Assembly (NCBI RefSeq): GCF_003334255.1 | Contig: NZ_QOWU01000078.1 | Source of the DNA: Escherichia coli | GTDB taxonomy: Bacteria > Pseudomonadota > Gammaproteobacteria > Enterobacterales > Enterobacteriaceae | DNA: 14,890 nucleotides | Direction: 5' to 3' (one strand) | In this document: piece by piece, positions 1 through 14,740 of the stretch | How positions within the stretch are numbered: the first letter of the stretch is position 1 | Layout: the number at the start of each line of letters is the position of its first letter | Made by a program: the position numbers and the translations under genes | The notes under the pieces: generated by a model | The model's input: only the letters and a program-made list of their open reading frames with translations | Database searches by the model: none | What the model was told of the DNA's origin: nothing

Positions 1-105
1 ACGCGAGGCATCGTCTTAACGAGGCACCGAGGCGTCGCATTCTTCAGATGGTTCAACCCTTAAGTTAGCGCTTATGGGACTTCCCCCCCTGATAATGCCT
101 GATAT

Positions 106-1650
106 TTACAGGTGTACTTCATCAATGTCTAACAATGACTTTTGAAGCACTTCAAAGACTGAACTATGGTCAAAGTCTTTGTTTTCTCGTGCAACTGAAA
201 TACCAGAGAAAGATTTACCATTCAATAAGCGTATAGTTATTTCTTGCTTGTAGTAGTCAAAAATCATCTCTTTGATAAATGACTTTATGGCAAGTTGTAG
301 TTTGATACGTCCCTCTACAGTTTTCCGGTCACTGTCTTGGATATCATTGTCTGACCTTAATGACTGGATAGCTTCAGCCTGTCTTAAATCCTTCTTCTTA
401 GATTCAAGTTCAACACGGTTGTTTGTTATTCTTTGGGCTAATGTGTCAAGGTCACCCAATCCTCTTTCTGCAAGGCTAATTAGGTTATTAATCCCTTTTT
501 CTAGTGATGTGATATCGGCTTTAAGCGTGGTAACAGAAATATTGTCACCATTACTCTTAAGGCTCAGATACTGAAGTGTGGGGAATACCTTTTGAATGAG
601 TATATCTTCAATCAATGAACGGTTAAATGCCTTAGAATTACAACGTCCAAGTTGACGATTACGACATTCAAGATAGCCTCTAGGGTAGCGTCCTTCTGGT
701 GTCTTCTTGGTATTACGCTGACGCAGTGTAGAACCACATTCTGCACACTTGCATATCCCTTTAAAGATATCAATAGAACTTGGTTGTCGTGAGGTTGGCT
801 TCTTGCCTTTGCCTTGACCTCTAATCATCTGTACGGCATGAAACTTTTCTTTTGAAATAGCAGGGGGGAAATAGTCACTGACTCCGTAAGCAACGCCAAT
901 TAGAGACTCCTTTAATAAAAGGTCACGTACTCTTGTAGGTGTCCAGCCTGTGTCTACCTTTTTATTCGTAATGGTGGGGATGTTTTCAAGATTTAAATCT
1001 CTGGCGATTGCATGTAGTGATTTTCCTGAAAGTTTTTCGTCAAAGATTCTATGAATTGTTTCTACGTGGTGAGGTATTAACGAAAATGATTTTCCGTCAG
1101 AATTGAGTTTTAACCATCCGGGGCAATTACCGGTTATCTTTGTTCCATCCTGTTCAAACTGTTGTCGTTTATGTGACCATACCTTTTTAATACGGTCAGA
1201 TTTAATAACAGACTCGTTATGGCTACGCTCTTGTAGGATAATCATTCTGATTAATGCGAGAGAATCATCAAGAGATTGGCGGTTATACGTTTCACCGTCG
1301 CTTAGAGTGACAACCGTAATACCTTGCTCAAGAATAGCCCTGATAGTTTCCTGTGCATGGCTGATTGACTGACGGCTTACACGGTCTAACGATTCCACCA
1401 GCAAGACAGAATCTGGCGGTATCAGACCTTGCTTAACAGCTTCAAGAAAAGCCCTGAGTGCTCCACCTTCTTTTAGATGGTCACCGTGAAAGGCTGAACG
1501 ACCTAAATCTTCAAAACTAAGAGATTCGTCTAGGATGTGGTCTGGATGGCTGGCTAACCAATCCTGTATGGCCTTACTCTGTCTTCGATGACTATCACCA
1601 AAAGCTTGTTTCGTTGACGAAAAGCGAATGTAACTGTAAACCTTCCTCAT
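106..1650 (-). CDS. Large serine recombinase (serine integrase; resolvase-type catalytic domain + recombinase domain + zinc ribbon + C-terminal coiled coil)
   Basis: 514-aa ORF. N-terminus YIRFSSTKQ fits the resolvase/invertase catalytic serine motif. A Cys cluster (CKCAECGS...YLECRNRQLGRCNS) fits the zinc-ribbon domain, and the C-terminus is heptad-rich and coiled-coil-like. An in-frame stop lies 6 codons upstream of the ATG, and there is no clear Shine-Dalgarno sequence. Confidence 0.85.
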   Translation of the reverse strand: MRKVYSYIRFSSTKQAFGDSHRRQSKAIQDWLASHPDHILDESLSFEDLGRSAFHGDHLKEGGALRAFLEAVKQGLIPPDSVLLVESLDRVSRQSISHAQETIRAILEQGITVVTLSDGETYNRQSLDDSLALIRMIILQERSHNESVIKSDRIKKVWSHKRQQFEQDGTKITGNCPGWLKLNSDGKSFSLIPHHVETIHRIFDEKLSGKSLHAIARDLNLENIPTITNKKVDTGWTPTRVRDLLLKESLIGVAYGVSDYFPPAISKEKFHAVQMIRGQGKGKKPTSRQPSSIDIFKGICKCAECGSTLRQRNTKKTPEGRYPRGYLECRNRQLGRCNSKAFNRSLIEDILIQKVFPTLQYLSLKSNGDNISVTTLKADITSLEKGINNLISLAERGLGDLDTLAQRITNNRVELESKKKDLRQAEAIQSLRSDNDIQDSDRKTVEGRIKLQLAIKSFIKEMIFDYYKQEITIRLLNGKSFSGISVARENKDFDHSSVFEVLQKSLLDIDEVHL

Positions 1651-1668
1651 CTGTATATTTATCCAGTA
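1649..1668. promoter_or_regulatory. Candidate LexA (SOS) box abutting the recombinase start codon
   Basis: The plus strand reads CTGTATATTTATCCAG (CTG-N10-CAG, AT-rich spacer), 13/16 identical to the dinB SOS box core. On the minus strand it reads TACTGGATAAATATACAG immediately followed by the ATG. Confidence 0.45.
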
Positions 1669-1704
1669 CTATAATGACTCTATGACCAGATTATAAGGGG
1701 TGTT

Positions 1705-1734
1705 TTAGGAAGTGAAAATCATGATTTTACGCAT
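1705..1734 (-). pseudogene. dinB: dinB (DNA polymerase IV) 5' end, truncated: 14 nt of dinB (ATGCGTAAAATCAT) fused to element DNA, giving a 9-codon ORF (MRKIMIFTS*)
   Basis: The minus strand reads GAGGTGAGCA-ATGCGTAAAATCAT, matching the recalled dinB ribosome-binding site and start (MRKI from MRKIIHVDMD...). The sequence diverges after codon 4 and hits TAA at codon 10. Confidence 0.7.
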
Positions 1735-1750
1735 TGCTCACCTCTCAACA

Positions 1751-1770
1751 CTGGTAAAGTATACAGTGAT
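1751..1770. promoter_or_regulatory. dinB: dinB promoter LexA box
   Basis: The minus strand reads CACTGTATACTTTACCAGTG, identical to the recalled dinB SOS operator, about 16 bp upstream of the dinB ATG at 1734. Confidence 0.8.
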
Positions 1771-1804
1771 TTCAGGGTTTGAGAAATGCGTAAAGATTCA
1801 GCAT

Positions 1805-2560
1805 TTAACGCGTTCGCTGCGAAAGCACCTGCTGCTTATCCAGCTTTTGCACCAGCGGCTGCACCACTTTATCCCCATGCTGACCAAAGTATTGATACAG
1901 CGTATCGGACGCACTTTTGGTCAGCACCATAATCTCAATGCGCCGGTTGCCCGCGCTTTGCGGATTTTTGGAATCCAGCAGCATCTGGTCCGCCATTGCG
2001 CTTACCTGCATCACTTTATCTTCCGGCATTCCGGCCTCTTCCAGCACCCGACGAGCCGAAAGCGCGCGGTCACCCGAAAGGTTCCAGTTGTTGTAGATAT
2101 TGTTTTTGTAGGCCATCGCATCGGTATGCCCGGTAATAATAATTTTATTATCGAGCGAGTCGAACACTGGCGCGAGCTCCACCAGCAGCGTTTTAAAGAA
2201 CGGCATAATCTTCGCGCTGCCGCGTTCAAACATATTGCGGTTCTGGTCGTCTTTAATCAGCACGCGTAATCCCTGGGGAACAATCTCCATCTCCAGATTC
2301 GCTTCCATATGCGCATCACGGGCAATGGTGTTGATACTGGTTGCCAGCTCACCAAGCTCGGTGGCGGATTTCTTCTTCAGCAGCGCCGTTTTCTCATTCA
2401 CATCACGCGCTTTTTTCTCCGTCTCTTCCGGCACCGCCACGGTGGCAGGTTTTGGCGGATGAGACGGGCTGATTTTATTTAACGGCGACAGCCCACCACC
2501 GTTAAAAATCGACTGCCCGTGCAGCGCGGCGATAATGCTTTCACGCTCGGATTTACTGAC
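1805..2560 (-). pseudogene. lafU: lafU remnant (MotB-like lateral flagellar motor protein, N-terminally truncated Flag-2 relic)
   Basis: The translation has a MotB/OmpA-like C-terminal domain (NWNLSGDRALSARRVLEE...RRIEIMVL) but lacks the N-terminal transmembrane helix. The six-frame ORF extends to 2695 only by reading antisense through lfhA. Position between lfhA and PdinB matches K-12. Confidence 0.75.
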
Positions 2561-4274
2561 GCTGTTGACAATCAACTTTATTGTCGTCACCAAAGGGGCC
2601 GAGCGTATTTCCGAGGTTTCTGCCCGCTTTACCTTAGACGCGATGCCCGGCAAACAGATGGCGATTGACGCCGATCTTAACGCCGGATTGATCAACCAGG
2701 CGCAGGCGCAAACCCGGCGTAAAGATGTTGCCAGCGAGGCCGATTTCTACGGCGCGATGGACGGGGCATCGAAGTTTGTGCGCGGGGACGCCATCGCCGG
2801 GATGATGATTCTGGCGATCAACCTGATCGGCGGCGTCTGTATCGGGATCTTCAAATACAACCTGAGCGCCGATGCTGCCTTCCAGCAGTATGTGCTGATG
2901 ACCATCGGCGACGGCCTGGTGGCGCAGATCCCTTCCCTGCTGCTCTCCACCGCGGCGGCGATTATCGTCACCCGCGTCAGCGACAACGGCGATATCGCCC
3001 ATGACGTGCGTAACCAGCTGCTGGCAAGCCCGTCGGTGCTCTACACCGCCACCGGGATTATGTTCGTGCTGGCGGTGGTACCGGGAATGCCGCACCTGCC
3101 GTTTTTGCTGTTCAGCGCCCTGCTTGGTTTTACCGGCTGGCGGATGAGCAAACAGCCGCTGGCGGCGGAGGCGGAAGAGAAAAGCCTCGAAACGCTGACC
3201 CGCACCATCACCGAAACCAGCGAGCAGCAGGTCAGTTGGGAAACCATTCCGCTGATCGAGCCTATCAGTTTAAGCCTCGGTTACAAACTGGTGGCGCTGG
3301 TGGACAAAGCACAGGGTAACCCGCTCACCCAGCGGATTCGCGGCGTGCGGCAGGTGATTTCTGACGGCAACGGCGTGCTGCTGCCGGAGATCCGCATTCG
3401 GGAAAACTTCCGCCTTAAGCCCAGTCAGTACGCCATTTTCATCAACGGCATAAAGGCTGATGAAGCGGATATTCCGGCGGATAAACTGATGGCCCTGCCC
3501 TCCAGCGAAACCTACGGCGAGATTGACGGCGTGCAGGGGAACGACCCGGCGTACGGGATGCCGGTCACCTGGATCCAGGCGGCGCAGAAAGCGAAGGCGC
3601 TGAATATGGGGTATCAGGTGATCGACAGCGCCAGCGTGATCGCTACCCATGTAAATAAGATTGTGCGCAGCTATATTCCTGATTTGTTTAACTATGATGA
3701 TATTACGCAGTTGCATAACCGTTTATCGTCGACGGCACCGCGTCTGGCGGAAGATTTGAGCGCGGCGCTCAATTACAGCCAGTTGCTGAAAGTGTACCGG
3801 GCGCTGCTGACCGAAGGCGTTTCCCTGCGCGATATCGTCACCATCGCCACCGTGCTGGTCGCCAGTAGCACGGTGACGAAAGATCATATTCTGCTGGCGG
3901 CCGATGTGCGCCTGGCATTGCGGCGCAGCATTACCCATCCGTTCGTTCGCAAGCAGGAGCTGACGGTGTATACGCTGAATAATGAGCTGGAAAATCTGCT
4001 GACCAACGTGGTGAATCAGGCGCAACAGGGCGGGAAAGTGATGCTCGACAGCGTGCCGGTCGATCCGAATATGCTCAACCAGTTCCAGAGTACGATGCCA
4101 CAGGTGAAAGAGCAGATGAAAGCGGCGGGGAAAGACCCGGTGCTGCTGGTGCCACCGCAGCTGCGCCCTTTGCTGGCGCGTTATGCAAGGTTGTTTGCGC
4201 CGGGGCTGCATGTGCTGTCGTATAACGAAGTGCCGGATGAGCTGGAGTTGAAGATTATGGGGGCGTTGATGTAA
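2535..4274 (+). pseudogene. lfhA: lfhA remnant (FlhA-family flagellar export apparatus protein, N-terminally truncated Flag-2 relic)
   Basis: 579-aa ORF with FlhA-family motifs (VVTKGAERISEVSARFTLDAMPGKQMAIDADLNAGLI) that begins inside the conserved transmembrane region, so about 100+ N-terminal residues are missing. Length matches the recalled K-12 lfhA fragment. Confidence 0.8.
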
Positions 4275-4297
4275 GTATCCAGCATTGGTGCACAACT

Positions 4298-4487
4298 GCC
4301 GGATGCGGCGTGAACGCCTTATCCGTCCTACCGTTCAGGCACAAGTTTGTAGGCATGATAAGACGCGCCAGCGTCGCATCAGGCATCTGCGCATAACTGC
4401 CGGATGCGGCATAAACGCCTTATCCGGCCTACCGATCCGGCACAAGTTTGTAGGCATGATAAGACGCGCTAGCGTCGCATCAGGCAT
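4298..4487. repeat. BIME: four REP (repetitive extragenic palindromic) units in alternating orientation
   Basis: GCCGGATGCGGCGTGAACGCCTTATCCGTCCTAC (4298-4331) and GCCGGATGCGGCATAAACGCCTTATCCGGCCTAC (4399-4432) alternate with GTAGGCATGATAAGACGCGCCAGCGTCGCATCAGGCAT (4349-4386, 4450-4487). These are canonical E. coli REP sequences. Confidence 0.85.
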
Positions 4488-4497
4488 CTGCGCACAA

Positions 4498-4995
4498 TTA
4501 TGAAATGATACGCTCCCCGGCACTAAAATCCGTTACGTCCCCCGCCCAATCGATGGGATATAACCCTCGCGCGACATCGCGATGGAACGTTGAGAATGGC
4601 CAATCACTCACTTGCTTTACCCAACCATGCTTTACTGGATTTATATAAATATAATCAACATGATGCCTATAATCTTTGGTATTGCGGATGGCGTGCTCCC
4701 AAAAACGTGGTTGCCAGATATTTTTCAATCCACAAGCATGGGTAAATTGCTTTTTAATTTCCCGCCAGCGCGAGGAAAAATCATCATCGCCTTCAGGTAA
4801 TGTCCAGATACAGTGCATATGCTCTGGCAAAACGACCCAGGCGTTGATTTCAAAAGGCCTGTCTCGCTTAACTTTAATAATGGCGTGACGGAGCATCTGG
4901 TACTGGGTGGTCAAAAGTTGGCTTCGACGATTTCGTAAATTCACCGTGAAAAACCATGTTCCCCCCTTGATGTAATAACGACGATATTCAGACAT
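4498..4995 (-). CDS. rayT: REP-associated tyrosine transposase RayT (TnpA-REP, HuH family; IS200/IS605-like)
   Basis: 165-aa ORF matching recalled RayT/YafM (MSEYRRYYIKGGTWFFTVNL...), with the HuH motif (PEHMHCIW) and REP arrays on both sides. Confidence 0.9.
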   Translation of the reverse strand: MSEYRRYYIKGGTWFFTVNLRNRRSQLLTTQYQMLRHAIIKVKRDRPFEINAWVVLPEHMHCIWTLPEGDDDFSSRWREIKKQFTHACGLKNIWQPRFWEHAIRNTKDYRHHVDYIYINPVKHGWVKQVSDWPFSTFHRDVARGLYPIDWAGDVTDFSAGERIIS

Positions 4996-5090
4996 GGCGA
5001 CTCCTTTTTCTCAACGGTAAGAAGAAAAGGAAAGGTTGGCAATGAGGTTGTTTTATATCGGGAAAGCGGCTCGCAAATATTCGCGGGCTC

Positions 5091-5174
5091 GTAGGCATGA
5101 TAAGACGCGCCAGCGTCGCATCAGGCACCTGCGTACAACTGCCGGATGCGGCGTAAACGCCTTATCCGTCCTAC
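5091..5174. repeat. REP pair (BIME) on the other flank of rayT
   Basis: GTAGGCATGATAAGACGCGCCAGCGTCGCATCAGGCA (5091-5127) and GCCGGATGCGGCGTAAACGCCTTATCCGTCCTAC (5141-5174), in inverted arrangement relative to the 4298-4487 array. Confidence 0.8.
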
Positions 5175-5920
5175 AAAATCGTCTCTTCCGTCAAAATCCT
5201 GCGCGCGCCCAAAAAATGGTCCTGCCAGAAAGGTTCGGCTAATCGGCTTATCCGAATGGTTTCGCCGGTACGTGGCGACTCGATAAATTGCCCATCGCCC
5301 AAATACACGCCCATATGATCGGCTATCTCGCGGCTGTGGATATGGAAAAACAGCAAATCTCCCCGGCGCAGGTCGTTGTTCGCCACAATCGTTGCCCGGC
5401 GATAGTGGTACATCTCATTGGCCGTGCGCGGGAGCTTAGCCTCAAGGATCTTGTTGTAGGCATAAAAAACCAACCCGCTACAGTCAAAGCCTTTATCAGG
5501 CCGCGTACCGCCCCAGACGTAAGGCTTGCCAAGCTGCTGCTCCAGGCGGTGAATCGCCACTTCGGTAATGTTATGCAGATGGTCGCTGCTTAAAAAGTGG
5601 TTGTTTTCCGCCAGCGCCTGCCAGCGTCTGTCACTCGCCTTGAGCGGAGCAGGAAACCATTCTGGATGCTGTTTTATCTGCTCCCGGTTGTGCTGGCGTA
5701 GCGCCCTTTTGCTTTCGGCATTGCCTTCCACAATATAGCTGGCCTGCTTTTTCAGATGAGTTTGGTACTGTTTTAATAAACGCGCACGGTTTTGCATCCG
5801 CTGGCGGGCGGCGTAGCTGAAAGAGATATGTGATGTGGTGGCGCTGGCAAATGAAGAAAACGGCAAACAAATCAACAGTAATCCCGACAATACAAAGGAT
5901 GGAATCGACGGCAAGGACAT
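5171..5920 (-). CDS. yafL: NlpC/P60-family putative peptidoglycan endopeptidase/lipoprotein YafL
   Basis: The ORF 5171..5980 contains MSLPSIPSFVLSGLLLICLPF... from codon 21, giving 249 aa as recalled for K-12 YafL. The NlpC/P60 Cys motif (DCSGLV) and His are present. The start is chosen by homology, not by ribosome-binding-site analysis. Confidence 0.85.
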   Translation of the reverse strand: MSLPSIPSFVLSGLLLICLPFSSFASATTSHISFSYAARQRMQNRARLLKQYQTHLKKQASYIVEGNAESKRALRQHNREQIKQHPEWFPAPLKASDRRWQALAENNHFLSSDHLHNITEVAIHRLEQQLGKPYVWGGTRPDKGFDCSGLVFYAYNKILEAKLPRTANEMYHYRRATIVANNDLRRGDLLFFHIHSREIADHMGVYLGDGQFIESPRTGETIRISRLAEPFWQDHFLGARRILTEETIL

Positions 5921-6097
5921 ACTCAATAATGGCTGGTCATGCTTTAATGTTGCAGTGTATCCCGGATCGTTTCTGAACAAACTTAATAAACCATTATTAT
6001 AAAATTAACATATATATTTCAGTTAATTATGTAAAAACATCCGTTTATTAAATTACTCATGGATTGTCGCTGTTGCTCATTTGAGCTACAATTCAAG

Positions 6098-6113
6098 CTG
6101 AATAAATATACAG
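6098..6113. promoter_or_regulatory. LexA box in the dinJ-yafQ promoter
   Basis: CTGAATAAATATACAG (CTG-N10-CAG, AT-rich spacer), about 17 bp upstream of the dinJ ATG. dinJ is a known damage-inducible gene. Confidence 0.7.
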
Positions 6114-6129
6114 CACAGGAGATACCCCA

Positions 6130-6390
6130 ATGGCTGCTAACGCGTTTGTTCGCGCCCGAATCGATGAAGATCTGAAGAATCAGGCAGCGGACGTACTGGC
6201 CGGGATGGGGCTGACCATCTCTGACCTGGTTCGCATAACCCTCACAAAGGTCGCGCGTGAAAAGGCATTGCCGTTTGATTTACACGAGCCTAATCAATTA
6301 ACCATTCAATCAATCAAAAACAGCGAAGCTGGCATTGATGTTCATAAGGCCAAAGACGCCGATGATTTATTTGATAAATTAGGAATTTAA
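6130..6390 (+). CDS. dinJ: Antitoxin DinJ (RelB/DinJ family)
   Basis: 86-aa ORF matching recalled DinJ (MAANAFVRARIDEDLKNQAADVLAGMGLTISDLVRI...). Its stop lies 2 nt from the yafQ start. Confidence 0.95.
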   Translation: MAANAFVRARIDEDLKNQAADVLAGMGLTISDLVRITLTKVAREKALPFDLHEPNQLTIQSIKNSEAGIDVHKAKDADDLFDKLGI

Positions 6391-6392
6391 AT

Positions 6393-6671
6393 ATGATTCA
6401 AAGGGATATTGAATACTCGGGACAATATTCAAAGGATGTAAAACTTGCACAAAAGCGTCATAAGGATATGAATAAATTGAAATATCTTATGACGCTTCTT
6501 ATCAATAATACTTTACCGCTTCCAGCTGTTTATAAAGACCACCCGCTGCAAGGTTCATGGAAAGGTTATCGCGATGCTCATGTCGAACCGGACTGGATCC
6601 TGATTTACAAACTTACCGATAAACTTTTACGATTTGAGAGAACTGGAACTCACGCGGCGCTCTTTGGGTAA
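6393..6671 (+). CDS. yafQ: Toxin YafQ (RelE/YafQ ribosome-dependent mRNA interferase)
   Basis: 92-aa ORF matching recalled YafQ (MIQRDIEYSGQYSKDVKLAQKRHKD...), in operon arrangement with dinJ. Confidence 0.95.
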   Translation: MIQRDIEYSGQYSKDVKLAQKRHKDMNKLKYLMTLLINNTLPLPAVYKDHPLQGSWKGYRDAHVEPDWILIYKLTDKLLRFERTGTHAALFG

Positions 6672-6826
6672 AGCCCGCTTCCGATGAAATTTGTAAACCC
6701 TGCGCCGACAGGCTTGCGTAAAACTCTTTTGGTGATAATGTGAGCCTTCCAAATCCAGACTATTCCGATTTGGGATCCATTTTGCCGTCCTGGCGTGTGT
6801 AACCGTTTTATCAAGGAATAAGCAGT

Positions 6827-7567
6827 ATGCGTAAAATCGCATTAATTCTTGCGATGTTGTTGATCCCGTGCGTTTCATTTGCCGGTTTGCTGGGCAGCAG
6901 TAGCTCTACCACGCCTGTGAGCAAAGAGTATAAGCAGCAGTTGATGGGATCCCCTGTCTACATCCAGATCTTCAAGGAAGAACGTACGCTCGATCTCTAC
7001 GTCAAAATGGGCGAGCAATATCAACTGCTCGACAGCTATAAAATCTGTAAATATTCCGGCGGCTTAGGGCCAAAACAGCGTCAGGGCGATTTCAAAAGCC
7101 CGGAAGGGTTTTATAGCGTCCAGCGTAATCAGTTAAAACCAGACAGCCGTTACTACAAAGCGATTAATATTGGTTTCCCCAATGCCTATGACCGTGCGCA
7201 TGGTTATGAAGGGAAATACCTGATGATCCACGGCGATTGTGTTTCCATCGGCTGCTACGCAATGACCAATCAGGGTATTGATGAGATATTCCAGTTCGTT
7301 ACTGGTGCGCTGGTGTTTGGTCAGCCGAGCGTGCAAGTGAGTATTTACCCGTTCCGCATGACCGACGCCAATATGAAGCGCCATAAATATTCCAACTTTA
7401 AGGACTTCTGGGAGCAACTGAAGCCGGGTTACGACTACTTTGAGCAAACCCGTAAGCCACCAACCGTTTCTGTGGTCAATGGTCGTTACGTGGTCAGCAA
7501 GCCGTTAAGCCACGAAGTTGTGCAGCCACAACTGGCATCAAACTACACGCTCCCCGAGGCAAAATAA
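6827..7567 (+). CDS. yafK: YkuD-fold L,D-transpeptidase-like protein YafK (DpaA/LdtF, peptidoglycan-Lpp amidase)
   Basis: 246-aa ORF with an N-terminal signal peptide ([19 protein letters not shown]) and the YkuD catalytic region ([13 protein letters not shown]). A Shine-Dalgarno sequence (AGGAA) lies upstream. Confidence 0.9.
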
Positions 7568-8305
7568 GCGCCATTCGCCTGGCATAATCTTTTGCCAGGT
7601 TTCATTGCCCGTCAGCGGCTGTGTTGCAATCACCGTGACCACATCATTCGGTGTGGTCTGCGAGCTGAAGTCGATTTCCACATCCTGATCCAGCAACGTT
7701 GCCACGCCAAACGGCGCGCGGCGGGTGATCCAGTGTAAATTAGTCGAGCAATACGCCATTACATAGCGCCCGTCCGAAAGCAGCATGTTGAAAACGCCCT
7801 TCTGCCGCAGTTCATCCGCCAGTGAGGCGATATATTTAAATACCGCCGCCATGTTGCCCGGTGTGCGCGGGTAACGCTGCGTTAATTTATGCAGGAGCCA
7901 GCAGAAGGCTTTTTCGCTGTCGGTTTCGCCTACCGGGCGGAAGTTGCCGGTTTCCAGTGATTTGTAGCCCGTCAGTTGTCCGTTATGGGCATAAGTCCAG
8001 TTACGCCCCCATAACTCGCGGGTAAATGGGTGAGTATTTTCCAGCGCCACCTCGCCCCGATTAGCCTGGCGAATATGAGCCACCACCGAACAGGATTTTA
8101 TCGGGTAGTCCTGGACAAGTTTGGCGATGGGGGAATTAAAGCTGGGTTGTGGATCTTTAAATGTGCGACAGCCTTTACCTTCGTAAAAGGTAATGCCCCA
8201 GCCATCTTTATGTGGCCCGGTTCCACCACCACGCTGTACAAGCCCGGTGAAACTAAAGCAGATATCGGTAGGGACGTTGGCGCTCATCCCGAGCAATTCG
8301 CACAT
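7538..8305 (-). CDS. yafJ: Class II glutamine amidotransferase-like protein YafJ
   Basis: The ORF 7538..8320 contains [19 protein letters not shown]... from codon 6 (255 aa). An N-terminal nucleophile Cys follows Met, typical of class II amidotransferases. A GGAGG Shine-Dalgarno sequence lies upstream of this start. The 3' end overlaps yafK convergently by 30 nt. Confidence 0.9.
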
Positions 8306-8368
8306 GGGTAACCTCCACAACAGCGGGAGCGCATGGCCCCCGGCGAAGATTGATTTAAGAATTTTCAG

Positions 8369-8503
8369 GTCGGATGCGGCGTGAACGCATTATTCGGCCT
8401 ACGGTTCGCGTACAGATTTGTAGGCATGATAAGACGCGTCAGCGTCGCATCAGGCATCAGCGCACAAATGCCGGATGCGGCGTAAACGTCTTATCCGGCC
8501 TAC
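8369..8503. repeat. BIME: three REP units between yafJ and gmhA
   Basis: GTCGGATGCGGCGTGAACGCATTATTCGGCCTAC (8369-8402), GTAGGCATGATAAGACGCGTCAGCGTCGCATCAGGCAT (8420-8457) and GCCGGATGCGGCGTAAACGTCTTATCCGGCCTAC (8470-8503). Confidence 0.85.
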
Positions 8504-8510
8504 GCCAGAC

Positions 8511-9089
8511 TTACTTAACCATCTCTTTTTCAATCAACTGGATCAGGATATGGATCACTTTAATGTGAATCTCCTGAATGCGGTCGGCATAACCAAAGTG
8601 CGGTACGCGAATTTCGATATCCGCCGTGCCAGCCATTTTGCCGCCGTCTTTACCGGTCAGGGTGATCACTTTCATTCCCTTCTCACGCGCCGCTGCGATC
8701 GCTTTGATCACGTTTGCAGAGTTACCGGAGGTGGAGATCCCCAGCAGTACATCGCCTTCGCGACCTACCGCTTCAACGTAGCGGGAGAAAATATCATTGA
8801 AACCGAAATCATTACCGACGCAGGAAATATGACTAACGTCAGAAATAGCAATCGCCGGGTAGCCCGGACGGTTTTCACGGTAGCGACCGGTCAACTCTTC
8901 GGCAAAGTGCATAGCGTCGCAATGGGAACCGCCGTTGCCGCAGGAAAGCACTTTGCCACCGGCTTTAAAGCTGTCTGCTAACAGGACCGCCGCGCGCTGA
9001 ATGGCGTGAATATTGGCGTCATCTTTTAAAAAGTTAGCCAGCGTTTCCGCCGCTTCGTTCAGTTCGTTACGAATAAGATCCTGGTACAT
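8511..9089 (-). CDS. gmhA: Phosphoheptose isomerase (sedoheptulose-7-phosphate isomerase), LPS core heptose biosynthesis
   Basis: The ORF 8511..9122 contains [20 protein letters not shown]... from codon 12 (192 aa). The SIS-domain motif ([16 protein letters not shown]) is present. Confidence 0.9.
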
Positions 9090-9290
9090 GAGGATATCCT
9101 TCAGCATAAATGTAATAGACAAAATGCAGTGTACCGGATACCGCCAAAAGCGAGAAGTACGGGCAGGTGCTATGACCAGGACTTTTTGACCTGAAGTGCG
9201 GATAAAAACAGCAACAATGTGAGCTTTGTTGTAATTATATTGTAAACATATTGCTAAATGTTTTTACATCCACTACAACCATATCATCAC

Positions 9291-9307
9291 AAGTGGTCAG
9301 ACCTCCT
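9291..9307. promoter_or_regulatory. Candidate FadR operator upstream of fadE
   Basis: AAGTGGTCAGACCTCCT matches the FadR consensus AACTGGTCNGACCTGTT at 14/17 positions, about 20 bp upstream of the fadE start. Confidence 0.55.
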
Positions 9308-9328
9308 ACAAGTAAGGGGCTTTTCGTT

Positions 9329-11773
9329 ATGATGATTTTGAGTATTCTCGCTACGGTTGTCCTGCTCGGCGCGTTGTTCTATCACCGCGTGAGCTTATTT
9401 ATCAGCAGTCTGATTTTGCTCGCCTGGACAGCCGCCCTCGGCGTTGCTGGTCTGTGGTCGGCGTGGGTACTGGTGCCTCTGGCCATTATCCTCGTGCCAT
9501 TTAACTTTGCGCCTATGCGTAAGTCGATGATTTCCGCGCCGGTATTTCGCGGTTTCCGTAAGGTGATGCCGCCGATGTCGCGCACTGAGAAAGAAGCGAT
9601 TGATGCGGGCACCACCTGGTGGGAGGGCGACTTGTTCCAGGGCAAGCCGGACTGGAAAAAGCTGCATAACTATCCGCAGCCGCGCCTGACCGCCGAAGAG
9701 CAAGCGTTTCTCGACGGCCCGGTAGAAGAAGCCTGCCGGATGGCGAATGATTTCCAGATCACCCATGAGCTGGCGGATCTGCCGCCGGAGTTGTGGGCGT
9801 ACCTTAAAGAGCATCGTTTCTTCGCGATGATCATCAAAAAAGAGTACGGCGGGCTGGAGTTCTCGGCTTATGCCCAGTCTCGCGTGCTGCAAAAACTCTC
9901 CGGCGTGAGCGGGATCCTGGCGATTACCGTCGGCGTGCCAAACTCATTAGGCCCGGGCGAACTGTTGCAACATTACGGCACTGACGAGCAGAAAGATCAC
10001 TATCTGCCGCGTCTGGCGCGTGGTCAGGAGATCCCCTGCTTTGCACTGACCAGCCCGGAAGCGGGTTCCGATGCGGGCGCGATTCCGGACACCGGGATTG
10101 TCTGCATGGGCGAATGGCAGGGCCAGCAGGTGCTGGGGATGCGTCTGACCTGGAACAAACGCTACATTACGCTGGCACCGATTGCGACCGTGCTTGGGCT
10201 GGCGTTTAAACTCTCCGACCCGGAAAAATTACTCGGCGGTGCAGAAGATTTAGGCATTACCTGTGCGCTGATCCCAACCACCACGCCGGGCGTGGAAATT
10301 GGTCGTCGCCACTTCCCGCTGAACGTACCGTTCCAGAACGGACCGACGCGCGGTAAAGATGTCTTCGTGCCGATCGATTACATCATCGGCGGGCCGAAAA
10401 TGGCCGGGCAAGGCTGGCGGATGCTGGTGGAGTGCCTCTCGGTAGGCCGCGGCATCACCCTGCCTTCCAACTCAACCGGCGGCGTGAAATCGGTAGCGCT
10501 GGCAACCGGCGCGTATGCTCACATTCGCCGTCAGTTCAAAATCTCTATTGGTAAGATGGAAGGGATTGAAGAGCCGCTGGCGCGTATTGCCGGTAATGCC
10601 TACGTGATGGATGCTGCGGCATCGCTGATTACCTACGGCATTATGCTCGGCGAAAAACCTGCCGTGCTGTCGGCTATCGTTAAGTATCACTGTACCCACC
10701 GCGGGCAGCAGTCGATTATTGATGCGATGGATATTACCGGCGGTAAAGGCATTATGCTCGGGCAAAGCAACTTCCTGGCGCGTGCTTACCAGGGCGCACC
10801 GATTGCCATCACCGTTGAAGGGGCTAACATTCTGACCCGCAGCATGATGATCTTCGGACAAGGAGCGATTCGTTGCCATCCGTACGTGCTGGAAGAGATG
10901 GAAGCGGCGAAGAACAATGACGTCAACGCGTTCGATAAACTGTTGTTCAAACATATCGGTCACGTCGGTAGCAACAAAGTTCGCAGCTTCTGGCTGGGCC
11001 TGACGCGCGGTTTAACCAGCAGCACGCCAACCGGCGATGCCACTAAACGCTACTATCAGCACCTGAACCGCCTGAGCGCCAACCTCGCCCTGCTTTCTGA
11101 TGTCTCGATGGCAGTGCTGGGCGGCAGCCTGAAACGTCGCGAGCGCATCTCGGCCCGTCTGGGGGATATTTTAAGCCAGCTCTACCTCGCCTCTGCCGTG
11201 CTGAAGCGTTATGACGACGAAGGCCGTAATGAAGCCGACCTGCCGCTGGTGCACTGGGGCGTACAAGATGCGCTGTATCAGGCTGAACAGGCGATGGATG
11301 ATTTACTGCAAAACTTCCCGAACCGCGTGGTTGCCGGGCTGCTGAATGTGGTGATCTTCCCGACCGGACGTCATTATCTGGCACCTTCTGACAAGCTGGA
11401 TCATAAAGTGGCGAAGATTTTACAAGTGCCGAACGCCACCCGTTCCCGCATTGGTCGCGGTCAGTACCTGACGCCGAGCGAGCATAATCCGGTTGGCTTG
11501 CTGGAAGAGGCGCTGGTGGATGTGATTGCCGCCGACCCAATTCATCAGCGGATCTGTAAAGAGCTGGGTAAAAACCTGCCGTTTACCCGTCTGGATGAAC
11601 TGGCGCACAACGCGCTGGTGAAGGGGCTGATTGATAAAGATGAAGCCGCTATTCTGGTGAAAGCTGAAGAAAGCCGTCTGCGCAGTATTAACGTTGATGA
11701 CTTTGATCCGGAAGAGCTGGCGACGAAGCCGGTAAAGTTGCCGGAGAAAGTGCGGAAAGTTGAAGCCGCGTAA
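9329..11773 (+). CDS. fadE: Acyl-CoA dehydrogenase FadE (beta-oxidation)
   Basis: The ORF 9251..11773 contains [24 protein letters not shown]... from codon 27 (814 aa). A Shine-Dalgarno sequence (AAGGGG) lies about 8 nt upstream of the ATG at 9329. An acyl-CoA dehydrogenase core follows the N-terminal membrane segment. Confidence 0.95.
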
Positions 11774-11781
11774 ATGAATAA

Positions 11782-11806
11782 CGGAGCCGAAAGGCTCCGT
11801 TTCTTT
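11782..11806. terminator. Candidate bidirectional intrinsic terminator between convergent fadE and ivy
   Basis: CGGAGCC-GAAA-GGCTCCG hairpin (7-bp GC-rich stem, 4-nt loop) followed by TTTCTTT on the plus strand and flanked by an A/T-rich run on the other side. Confidence 0.6.
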
Positions 11807-11815
11807 ATCCGCTAA

Positions 11816-12289
11816 TTATTTAAAATTAAAGCCATCCGGATGGTTTTCCAGGCTGCCGGTCAACGCCGCGAACAACACCGTTTTACCATCAATCGAAAGC
11901 GCATCGTTCACATTCAGCCAGGTGAGTTTCTCTTGCGACGTTTTCTCATCAATAGTCGAGAACAGCCCCGTCATCTGATTAGATTTCTCGGACCACATCA
12001 CAGCGATACGTTGCGAGCCACAGTCATGCGGTTTGCACGCGCTCATCACCTGATACGTCTCATCTCCCAACGTTACGGTTTGTGCGGGAGTATAAGTACC
12101 GCCTTTCATCACCCAGGCAGGCAGCTTATGCCCTTGTACCATCTGATTAAATGCAGCTTTGGTGGTTTCGCCCTTTGCAAGGCTGCTAATGGTTAAATCA
12201 TCCTGCGCCATTGCACTGGTGGCGATGACCAGAGCGGCGACTGTCGTTATTGCCTTAAACATCATTCCTCCCGAGCTTATCCTGCCCAT
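11816..12289 (-). CDS. ivy: Inhibitor of vertebrate (C-type) lysozyme, periplasmic
   Basis: 157-aa ORF matching recalled Ivy, with a signal peptide (MFKAITTVAALVIATSAMA) and the CKPHDC inhibitory loop motif. Confidence 0.9.
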   Translation of the reverse strand: MGRISSGGMMFKAITTVAALVIATSAMAQDDLTISSLAKGETTKAAFNQMVQGHKLPAWVMKGGTYTPAQTVTLGDETYQVMSACKPHDCGSQRIAVMWSEKSNQMTGLFSTIDEKTSQEKLTWLNVNDALSIDGKTVLFAALTGSLENHPDGFNFK

Positions 12290-12442
12290 GTTATTAACCT
12301 CCTAAAGCCTGGCGATAACACGATAATTTGCAAATCAGATATTTCCAATATCAGCATTTGTTATCAATTTATTCTGCGCTAAGGCAACTGCCTGATAAGG
12401 TGTTAAAGTTATAAAACCCTTCGCATAAAGGAGTTGTACACC

Positions 12443-13213
12443 GTGCCTGGTTTGAAGATTACGCTTTTGCAGCAACCACTGGTGTGGATGGATGGTCCTG
12501 CCAACCTGCGTCATTTTGATCGTCAACTGGAAGGTATTACCGGGCGCGATGTGATCGTTCTACCGGAGATGTTTACCAGCGGCTTTGCCATGGAAGCGGC
12601 AGCTTCGTCGCTAGCACAAGATGACGTAGTGAACTGGATGACAGCTAAGGCGCAGCAGTGCAATGCGCTGATTGCAGGCAGTGTTGCATTACAAACGGAG
12701 TCTGGTTCGGTTAACCGCTTTTTGCTGGTTGAGCCGGGCGGCACGGTACATTTTTATGATAAGCGTCATCTGTTCCGCATGGCAGATGAGCATCTACATT
12801 ATAAAGCGGGCAATGCGCGAGTGATTGTGGAATGGCGCGGCTGGCGTATTTTGCCGCTGGTGTGCTACGACTTACGTTTTCCTGTGTGGTCGCGCAATCT
12901 CAACGATTATGACCTCGCCCTGTACGTCGCCAACTGGCCTGCTCCGCGCTCTCTGCACTGGCAGGCATTGCTGACGGCCCGCGCGATTGAGAATCAGGCG
13001 TATGTGGCGGGATGCAATCGCGTCGGCAGCGATGGCAACGGCTGCCATTATCGCGGTGACAGCCGGGTGATTAATCCGCAAGGAGAGATTATCGCTACTG
13101 CCGACGCGCATCAGGCAACGCGCATTGATGCGGAGCTGTCGATGGCAGCATTGCGGGAATATAGAGAAAAGTTTCCGGCATGGCAGGATGCGGATGAGTT
13201 TAGGTTGTGGTGA
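12443..13213 (+). CDS. yafV: Nitrilase-superfamily omega-amidase (2-oxoglutaramate amidase) YafV
   Basis: CN-hydrolase fold with the catalytic triad context (E in VLPEMF, K in YDKRHLF, C in LVCYDLRFP). The GTG start at 12443 is chosen 9 nt after the AAGGAG Shine-Dalgarno sequence; the ORF-track TTG at 12434 directly abuts it. Confidence 0.9.
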   Translation: MPGLKITLLQQPLVWMDGPANLRHFDRQLEGITGRDVIVLPEMFTSGFAMEAAASSLAQDDVVNWMTAKAQQCNALIAGSVALQTESGSVNRFLLVEPGGTVHFYDKRHLFRMADEHLHYKAGNARVIVEWRGWRILPLVCYDLRFPVWSRNLNDYDLALYVANWPAPRSLHWQALLTARAIENQAYVAGCNRVGSDGNGCHYRGDSRVINPQGEIIATADAHQATRIDAELSMAALREYREKFPAWQDADEFRLW

Positions 13214-13253
13214 GTGGGGGTTGTGTTTAAGGACGGGGAGAGTCGGGGTATTA

Positions 13254-14390
13254 CTACGAAAGCCCGCTCCCCGCAAGGACTGACGCCAGGTAGTTTCTGT
13301 CCATGGCTGCTTTTCGCATCTTACGTCTTAACCCTGCCTTGAATACCTTCTCATTCGTCAAAATATTAATAGCAATGTGCCGTATCCCTGAAAATAATTC
13401 TGCTGCGTTTCCTCTTCTTATTTTGTAGTCGTCTTCATTCATTACCACGTCCAGACGCCTGTGCAGCTTATTCTCCACGTGCCAGTGGTTTCGGATTGCT
13501 GTGGCGAACTTCTCTGCGGTTAAATCAGCAGAACTGATATAATATCTGACCGTCATTTCGAGCTCTTTCTTTTGTTCTGCTATTATGGACCGAAAGGAGA
13601 CTGCCACGCATAATTTCTTCAGCCCTTTCCATTCAAACGTGAAATCAATAAGTTCATCAGGGACATCGCAAACAATATGAAGACGGATTTCTTCTCTGCC
13701 GTGACTCTTTTCACTCATTGCGTAACTGTCATGCTCTGGATTATTTAATTCTTTCAGCGGAAATTTTTCCTCAAAGGCTTTATTTAGCCGCCCCTGGTTT
13801 CCTTTTACCGCGAATAAATAATCACCTCCCTGTTTTTGTATCTTCTCTGCAATATCTTTCTGGCAACCCATCGCATCAGTTGTGATGATTTTTCCTTTAA
13901 TATCCAGCATGTTAAGAAGTTCAGGGATAGCTGTAATCTCATTGGATTTCTCATCCGTCCTGATCTGTCCGATGACCAGACTGTGCATTGTTGAGAACGC
14001 ACTAATGACATGAATCGCTCCCTTGCGGCGACTCTTGTCATAAGAATGCCGGAGTGTTTTTCCATCAATTGCGATGACGTCTTTATCATCTGAAGTATGG
14101 CAATCTCGCATCCAGTTAATAAAGCACTCGTGAAATTTTGAAGGACTGATACAGGATACAACTCTGGCGATGGTATCGTGAACAGGAATACCATTTTCAA
14201 AATCACCATATTGTTTTAAAAAATCGAGATGTGTTTCCCCAAAATCCTCTATATCTTCCCAGCCTTCTGCACCAGAAATAACGGCACAAATAGTCAACAG
14301 TAGAATATCCGATAATTTATGTTCCACTTTCCAGGCTTGTCTGTAATCGGGGATAATAGAAATATGTTCCATCAATTTTTTAAGTTCCAT
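13254..14390 (-). CDS. ISAs1-family transposase (H-repeat-associated ORF-H protein), apparently intact
   Basis: 378-aa ORF closely resembling E. coli H-repeat proteins (YhhI/YdcC/YbfD family). The K-12 equivalent position is recalled to hold only a short remnant (yafF). The IS ends were not delimited. Confidence 0.85.
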
Positions 14391-14488: not shown

Positions 14489-14534
14489 GCGAATTATTTA
14501 GTACAAAAAATCAGCGTTACGTGATCTTTCCCTG
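14489..14534. repeat. Direct repeat copy 1 (~46 bp)
   Basis: GCGAATTATTTAGTACAAAAAATCAGCGTTACGTGATCTTTCCCTG. Near-identical copy at 14741-14787. Confidence 0.6.
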
Positions 14535-14740
14535 CCCCTGCGCTCACTACCATGGCTCTTTACCACAGCAGCCGGGGTTGTTTGGGACCGACTTCCGACA
14601 GCAGATCCCGGTGGGCCTGCCACCATCTCTTCACAAGCTTATGCTTATTACATGCAAAACGTCCCGTTTTGCATCTTTGTGCCTACGGCACACCGGTGAT
14701 CTTTCCCTGATGAGGGATATATTAACTATTGAACATTAGC

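Follow-up and report, generated by a model that had tools for sequence, protein, structure and literature searches.

The dinJ-yafQ toxin-antitoxin module of Escherichia coli with a putative DinJ operator and a LexA box at its promoter

Genes, proteins and genomic setting of dinJ-yafQ

The DNA analysed here, referred to as the window, is a stretch of 14,890 nt from an Escherichia coli assembly (GCF_003334255.1, contig NZ_QOWU01000078.1). It carries dinJ and yafQ, a small antitoxin gene located directly upstream of a small toxin gene on one strand. Both genes and their translation signals are as follows.

6117-6121, plus strand: Shine-Dalgarno sequence AGGAG of dinJ, 8 nt before the ATG, assigned from sequence
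6130-6390, plus strand: dinJ, antitoxin and repressor, 86 aa, allele R52H
6381-6384, plus strand: likely Shine-Dalgarno sequence AGGA of yafQ, within the 3' end of dinJ and 8 nt before the yafQ ATG, read from sequence
6393-6671, plus strand: yafQ, RelE-family ribosome-dependent mRNA endonuclease toxin, 92 aa, intact

The TAA stop codon of dinJ (6388-6390) is followed by the dinucleotide AT and then by the ATG of yafQ at 6393, which leaves a gap of 2 nt. A preliminary description of this DNA had located both genes, the short gap between them and a LexA box ahead of dinJ correctly. The GGAG of the dinJ Shine-Dalgarno sequence is conserved at the same position in homologues.

The naming of the two open reading frames as DinJ and YafQ in that description was borne out at the protein level. 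DinJ is identical to the crystallised DinJ protein (PDB 4Q2U_A) in 85 of 86 residues, the sole change being R52H, and YafQ matches wild-type YafQ (PDB 4ML2_A) over its entire length (92/92). DinJ scores 82.3 bits against the family model TIGR02384 (RelB_DinJ; NCBIfam curated cut-off 45.65), and YafQ scores 120 bits against TIGR00053 (YafQ; cut-off 87) and 89 bits against TIGR02385 (RelE_StbE; cut-off 28), all above the curated values. DinJ is thus an antitoxin of the RelB/DinJ ribbon-helix-helix family. The translation of yafQ contains H50, H63, D67, H87 and F91, which we take to be the catalytic residues; judged from its sequence, YafQ has the RelE/YafQ RNase fold with these residues intact. 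As a ribosome-dependent endoribonuclease, YafQ cleaves in-frame AAA-A/G lysine codons, as established for the identical K-12 proteins, and the ribbon-helix-helix protein DinJ blocks YafQ by wrapping its C-terminus round it. Growth arrest by the toxin and its neutralisation by the antitoxin have likewise been established for the identical K-12 proteins (PMC2814082 and references therein).

The R52H allele arises from an A at window position 6284 and was found in only three complete E. coli genomes (G1/2, G6/7 and G8), which stem from one study. In an alignment of 13 family members, column 52 is occupied by R, H or Q, with H in three of the 12 homologues. A functional effect of R52H was considered and rejected as unsupported, since other genera naturally have H in this column. 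Because the column varies across the family, the exchange is taken as neutral and no functional change is expected.

The window is part of the E. coli chromosome and is K-12-like at dinJ-yafQ. Compared to K-12 MG1655, a single base differs over 11.8 kb (window 1721-13534; A at 6284, G in MG1655). The gene order is that of K-12 in reverse, namely lafU, a truncated flhA-like gene, rayT, yafL, dinJ, yafQ, dpaA (yafK), yafJ, lpcA and fadE, and the RefSeq annotation of K-12 has dinJ and yafQ in the matching position. The 850-nt stretch round dinJ-yafQ has a match in 5424 of 5426 complete E. coli genomes, with dinJ, yafQ and dpaA as the RefSeq labels. The module itself is carried by 3340 of the 5426 genomes and is missing from 2086.

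Several strains differ at this locus. In strain PSS-11 (L099), an IS1 element takes the place of rayT, yafL, dinJ and yafQ. In the O157:H7 strain F7386 (L096, 654-930), yafQ is a pseudogene through a frameshift, and in strain KL53 (L098, 654-923) it is one through a short deletion and an internal stop. In both of these strains dinJ, the operator and the LexA box are still intact, so in some E. coli lineages the toxin decays and the antitoxin/repressor is kept.

An Rfam search of positions 6098-6671 yielded no match. Elsewhere in the window, matches to the REP-type family naRNA4 were found on the minus strand at 4352-4429, 5094-5171 and 8423-8500, two of which flank the REP-associated transposase gene rayT (4498-4995). 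Domains D1-D4 of a group II intron (RF01999, 81.8 bits, E = 1.6e-15) matched the minus strand at 14504-14624, near the right end of the window, where MG1655 shares no sequence.

Promoter, putative DinJ operator and LexA box

Upstream of dinJ, the following elements were found.

6064-6069, plus strand: predicted -35 hexamer TTGTCG, from a consensus scan
6071-6090: palindrome TGTTGCTCA-TT-TGAGCTACA, putative DinJ autorepression operator, overlapping the -10 hexamer, with 8 of 9 arm positions complementary
6087-6092, plus strand: predicted -10 hexamer TACAAT, from a consensus scan
6096-6115: LexA box 20-mer AGCTGAATAAATATACAGCA, with the core CTG-N10-CAG CTGAATAAATATACAG at 6098-6113, over the predicted transcription start

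The two hexamers, separated by a 17-nt spacer, agree with the consensus at 9 of 12 positions and form the sole sigma-70-like match upstream of dinJ. Transcription of dinJ-yafQ is predicted to start at about 6098-6102, within the LexA box. The core of the box begins at 6098, 6 nt past the end of the predicted -10 hexamer at 6092, and from the position of this hexamer the box is therefore predicted to lie over the expected +1. This is where working LexA boxes usually lie (PMC2814082, PMC8072944).

The loose pattern CTG-N10-CAG has five matches in the window compared to 2.95 expected, and 38 of 200 shuffled sequences reach five. It is not significant as a test of the box on its own, and the full consensus and a matrix were used instead. 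With up to three mismatches allowed to the consensus CTGTATATATATACAG, the whole window gave two matches, at 1651 and 6098. Both have two mismatches, the latter being the dinJ core CTGAATAAATATACAG (2/16). Chance would be expected to give 0.01 such matches, and none of 200 shuffles reached two.

The matrix was symmetric and comprised 24 E. coli LexA boxes other than that of dinJ, which we take to be those listed by Lewis (1994) and Fernandez De Henestrosa (2000). The dinB box was the one among them to be checked, against the sequence of the window. The 24 true sites span 12.8-27.6 bits. Such scoring of the dinJ site had been proposed in the preliminary description, and it placed the site within this span, as it did two others.

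1649-1668: element LexA box, 21.9 bits
1749-1768: dinB LexA box, 16.9 bits
6096-6115: dinJ LexA site, 21.2 bits
9256-9275: best position in the window beyond the three LexA sites, 8.1 bits

These values bear out the earlier count of up to three LexA-type sites in about 4.5 kb. For the dinJ site, a heterology index of 7.3 was calculated from the set of 24 boxes; the published index is reportedly about 7.1. A fourth CTG-N10-CAG, inside the dinJ coding sequence (6172-6187), was set aside as a chance match, since it does not rank among the top 12 positions of the matrix scan, none of which scores below 2.8 bits. Judged by matrix score, the dinJ box is a genuine high-scoring LexA-type site, predicted to lie where a repressor site would act.

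The exact sequence of the box is present in 3025 of the 3340 complete E. coli genomes that carry the module, as counted with a 40-nt query built in such a way that any megablast seed spans the whole box. The variant CTGTATAAATATACAG, which is nearer to the consensus, occurs in 212 further genomes. Conservation within E. coli was considered as a sign of selection and is a weak one, because the overall identity of these genomes is 98-99%.

The palindrome at 6071-6090 lies 5 nt from the LexA 20-mer. It was found by comparison of homologues; a repeat finder with a 6-nt seed gave only AT-rich upstream repeats and missed it, the longest exact match between its arms being 6 nt. For the comparison, DinJ was aligned with 12 relatives, and this alignment served to retrieve 80 loci from a genome collection, one for each species. 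In 61 of these 80 loci the half-site GAGC[TC]A[CT] lies no more than 90 nt upstream of dinJ, compared to 1.9% of control windows, and 11 further loci have the rearranged palindrome GCTACAATGTAGC. The palindrome TGTAGCTCA-NN-TGAGCTACA, with its right arm running into the -10 hexamer TACAAT, is found in Enterobacterales as well as in genomes of alpha-, beta- and deltaproteobacteria, and in most homologues the operator arm is followed by TACAAT or TACAGT. Two layouts of the putative operator, which is conserved among bacteria of very distant relationship, were observed about 20-60 nt upstream of dinJ (L003-L082): TGTAGCTCA-NN-TGAGCTACA and one with swapped half-sites, GAGCTACA-AT-TGTAGCTC, the latter among others in Legionellales and Coxiellaceae.

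DinJ and the DinJ-YafQ complex were reported to bind a palindrome that partly overlaps promoter elements (PMC6529426) and to repress the operon through it (PMC6529426, PMC8138530). DinJ is described as the repressor, unaffected by YafQ, with control by LexA being external (PMC8138530). We infer that the palindrome at 6071-6090 is, in this exact sequence, the DinJ operator.

Distribution of the LexA box and an integrase element in dinB

When the LexA matrix was run on the 120 nt upstream of each of the 80 dinJ homologues, a LexA box was found in a single locus, that of Escherichia sp. (21.0 bits). The 120-nt regions of the remaining 79 loci showed no LexA box and reached at most 3.5 bits, similar to control windows. 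None of the dinJ homologues has an upstream match to the LexA motif of alphaproteobacteria (GTTC-N7-GTTC or GAAC-N7-GAAC). The leader from the operator to the ATG measures 40 nt in the window compared to typically 27-33 nt elsewhere, and this longer leader makes room for much of the LexA box.

Among other copies, those of Salmonella enterica located downstream of rtcBA have, in register with the E. coli box, the sequence AACTGTATAGAGACACAGTA (17.9 bits). Both CTG and CAG are retained in it, and of the 10 spacer bases 6 are identical and 4 differ. The region from operator to ATG aligns between the two over 62 nt without a gap, and in both E. coli and Salmonella the LexA 20-mer ends 14 nt from the ATG. 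The same distance was reported for STM14_4236 (PMC8072944) and agrees with the aligned position. In the S. enterica loci L083-L085 (1380-1510), rtcB-rtcA are closely followed by dinJ-yafQ. A further Salmonella cassette, located in a different context, carries the decayed box ATGAATGAATATACAG (13.5 bits), in which the left CTG is lost. No LexA box was found upstream of dinJ in the copies from Yersinia, Klebsiella, Pseudocitrobacter, S. diarizonae, Pectobacterium, Xenorhabdus and Photorhabdus. The DinJ protein of the Yersinia copy, which is located inside a prophage tail region, is 85% identical.

Since the Salmonella box keeps the E. coli distance to the ATG despite different flanking genes, it appears to have moved with the cassette. 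Its presence in Escherichia and some Salmonella copies and its absence from other relatives indicate, from the sequences compared, that the LexA box is a trait of one clade of the mobile cassette rather than of dinJ-yafQ in general.

K-12 lacks the left 1720 nt of the window. They represent the end of an integrated element (junction 1720/1721), which is inserted 14 nt into the coding sequence of dinB, with the dinB ATG at 1734. The window has a third LexA site because of this insertion.

106-1650, minus strand: large serine integrase, 514 aa, phrog_95
1651-1666: core of the element LexA box, near-consensus, adjoining the integrase start with no space for a ribosome-binding site
1751-1766: core of the dinB LexA box; the dinB SOS promoter now reads into the integrase gene

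The integrase gene is thus located behind two LexA operators, the element box and the dinB box. The palindrome AAAATCATGATTTT spans the junction between element and dinB. At least 80% of window positions 1-1900 are present in only 26 of 5426 E. coli genomes, and part of this region is multi-copy, with up to 23 places per genome. Excision triggered by the SOS response and restoring dinB is a hypothesis that fits this arrangement.

The same element, about 11 kb in length, occurs in strain 1218KP (L100), where it carries genes for baseplate, tape measure and HNH proteins and two recombinase genes. At its far end (10453-10560), where it joins the body of dinB, the element contributes the promoter-like sequence TGTGTATAAT, an extended -10-like sequence, as well as the start GTG-AAG-ATT-ATT, which is fused in frame with the remaining dinB. 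Because the element supplies both promoter-like sequence and an in-frame start, dinB in 1218KP may stay expressed, uncoupled from its LexA-controlled promoter. Window positions 1-78 are not common to the 1218KP element, whose match begins at base 76 of the window. These 78 nt have an identical counterpart within a short record, Escherichia phage ECO111 5-P, and possibly contain the end of an insertion sequence. This LexA-boxed integrase element in dinB is more unusual than dinJ-yafQ itself, which matters little alone.

Control of dinJ-yafQ and comparison with known systems

In the preliminary description the module was called SOS-controlled, and the published experiments bear this out in part. 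A passage in PMC4996492, citing Ruangprasert 2014, states that LexA binds the dinJ promoter, and a chromosomal dinJ-lacZ fusion was 2-3 fold up in a lexA sulA double deletion (PMC6015884). On the other side, PMC4996492 says of induction of dinJ-yafQ by DNA damage that it 'experimentally has not been seen', and ciprofloxacin did not activate dinJ-yafQ significantly while tisAB rose 1000-fold and symE 100-fold (PMC2826370). Binding by LexA and a modest rise without it are reported, and induction by damage, a defining feature of the SOS regulon, was not observed in the published tests. 'SOS-controlled' is an overstatement of these experiments, and because the published induction tests are negative, the label should not be passed on.

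We consider it likely that autorepression by DinJ is the main control of dinJ-yafQ and that LexA adds a weak, lineage-specific second layer buffered by feedback. One promoter would serve dinJ and then yafQ, with DinJ at the palindrome 6071-6090 acting as the ancestral and dominant repressor. LexA at 6098-6113 would cover the transcription start and provide the second, weaker layer of repression. The LexA box would be a lineage-specific addition within the 40-nt leader of the Escherichia and Salmonella cassettes; its absence from 79 species loci, together with the wide conservation of the palindrome, points to LexA as at most a secondary, lineage-specific input. Once LexA is removed, negative feedback by DinJ on its own promoter would presumably re-close it, and because of this feedback the removal of LexA would give a small steady-state rise and DNA damage alone little or no net induction. 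The dominant role of DinJ and the secondary role of LexA draw on sequence, comparison and literature, while we infer the buffering by feedback.

That dinJ-yafQ is a true member of the SOS regulon, with LexA as the main switch and strong induction of toxin and antitoxin by damage, appears improbable. The box does score as high as many confirmed SOS boxes and lies over the predicted transcription start. RegulonDB enters dinJ and yafQ as LexA-regulated (PMC4576408), reviews call the module LexA-regulated (PMC9040746, PMC2814082), and some simply class it as SOS-regulated (PMC9040746, PMC7781912). The derepression upon lexA deletion also speaks for this reading, but 2-3 fold is small for a 21-bit box. 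Apart from the negative ciprofloxacin test and the induction not seen after damage, it is at odds with the lack of a box in most dinJ homologues, the 85%-identical Yersinia copy included. The 7.8-fold rise of Salmonella dinJ with nalidixic acid (PMC8072944) was considered as proof of control by LexA and rejected: transcription of the RtcR-dependent RNA repair operon, an operon activated in the SOS response, also covers this gene (PMC9879122). Because of this co-transcription, the rise need not stem from LexA at the dinJ promoter, and read-through from the RtcR regulon can explain it. The same absence of damage induction (PMC2826370, PMC4996492) would suit a box that is vestigial, or a fortuitous AT-rich palindrome that LexA can bind in vitro with no regulatory effect in the cell. 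This reading, which we regard as quite improbable, agrees with the absence of the box beyond Escherichia and Salmonella, with its decay to ATGAATGAATATACAG in one Salmonella cassette and with a conservation in E. coli that is expected from 98-99% identity and is no proof of selection. However, such a site is very unlikely to have arisen by chance (0.01 expected), and the orthologous Salmonella box keeps CTG and CAG though 4 of 10 spacer bases differ. Furthermore, the sole common E. coli variant shifts towards the consensus (CTGAAT to CTGTAT, 212 genomes), and expression does rise 2-3 fold when lexA is deleted (PMC6015884).

It is highly improbable that the box is also, or instead, a binding site of DinJ, which would then occupy two promoter sites in competition with LexA. 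In favour of this reading, Hu, Benedik and Wood (2012) reportedly described repression of cspE by DinJ 'at the LexA palindrome'. Binding of DinJ at the cspE palindrome is also mentioned in PMC4996492, and box and operator are just 5 nt apart (6090 to 6096). Against this, the box is quite unlike the half-sites TGTAGCTCA/TGAGCTACA that are conserved, and homologues that lack the box still carry the operator.

Autorepression by DinJ with LexA as a secondary input, the reading preferred here, leaves room for a further suggestion, which we put forward tentatively and regard as rather unlikely. The LexA box would be a recent, clade-specific addition that moves along with the Escherichia/Salmonella dinJ-yafQ cassette and makes the promoter an AND gate, so that DinJ has to be degraded and LexA cleaved together before transcription rises. 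If true, this would explain the lack of induction by DNA damage alone, and strong induction would be restricted to combined proteolytic and genotoxic stress. The dinJ box would then add to an unusually dense group of three LexA operators in 4.5 kb, one of them brought by the integrase element. With the DinJ palindrome widely conserved and the LexA box confined to one lineage, the module offers a testable picture of a mobile toxin-antitoxin cassette gaining an input from host stress.

For E. coli K-12, dinJ-yafQ with its structure, its operator and its LexA box is textbook knowledge, and the system is already known. The K-12 module (b0226-b0225; PDB 4Q2U, 4ML0, 4ML2) shares the chromosomal position between yafL and yafK/dpaA with the window. 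Promoter, operator, LexA box and yafQ are all identical, and the window differs by one nonsynonymous change, R52H in DinJ (6284). The S. enterica module located downstream of rsr-yrlBA-rtcBA (STM14_4236 in strain 14028s) encodes a DinJ protein with 83% identity and has operator, -10 hexamer, LexA box and Shine-Dalgarno sequence in the same layout (PMC8072944). It differs in its genomic neighbourhood, in the sequence of the box (CTGTATAGAGACACAG) and in being co-transcribed with a sigma-54/RtcR-dependent operon (PMC9879122).

Clear induction by DNA damage is a feature of yafNO in the dinB operon and of the type I SOS toxins tisB, symE and hokE, whereas dinJ-yafQ is without it (PMC2826370); in the case of yafNO, induction by damage proceeds through the dinB promoter. 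With relBE and other type II modules of the RelB/RelE type, dinJ-yafQ has in common that the gene of a ribbon-helix-helix antitoxin lies upstream of that of a RelE-fold ribosome-dependent RNase, and that the operon is autorepressed at a palindrome in the promoter. It is distinguishable from them in that it is reported to be without conditional cooperativity (PMC4996492, PMC8138530) and in that it carries an extra LexA site.
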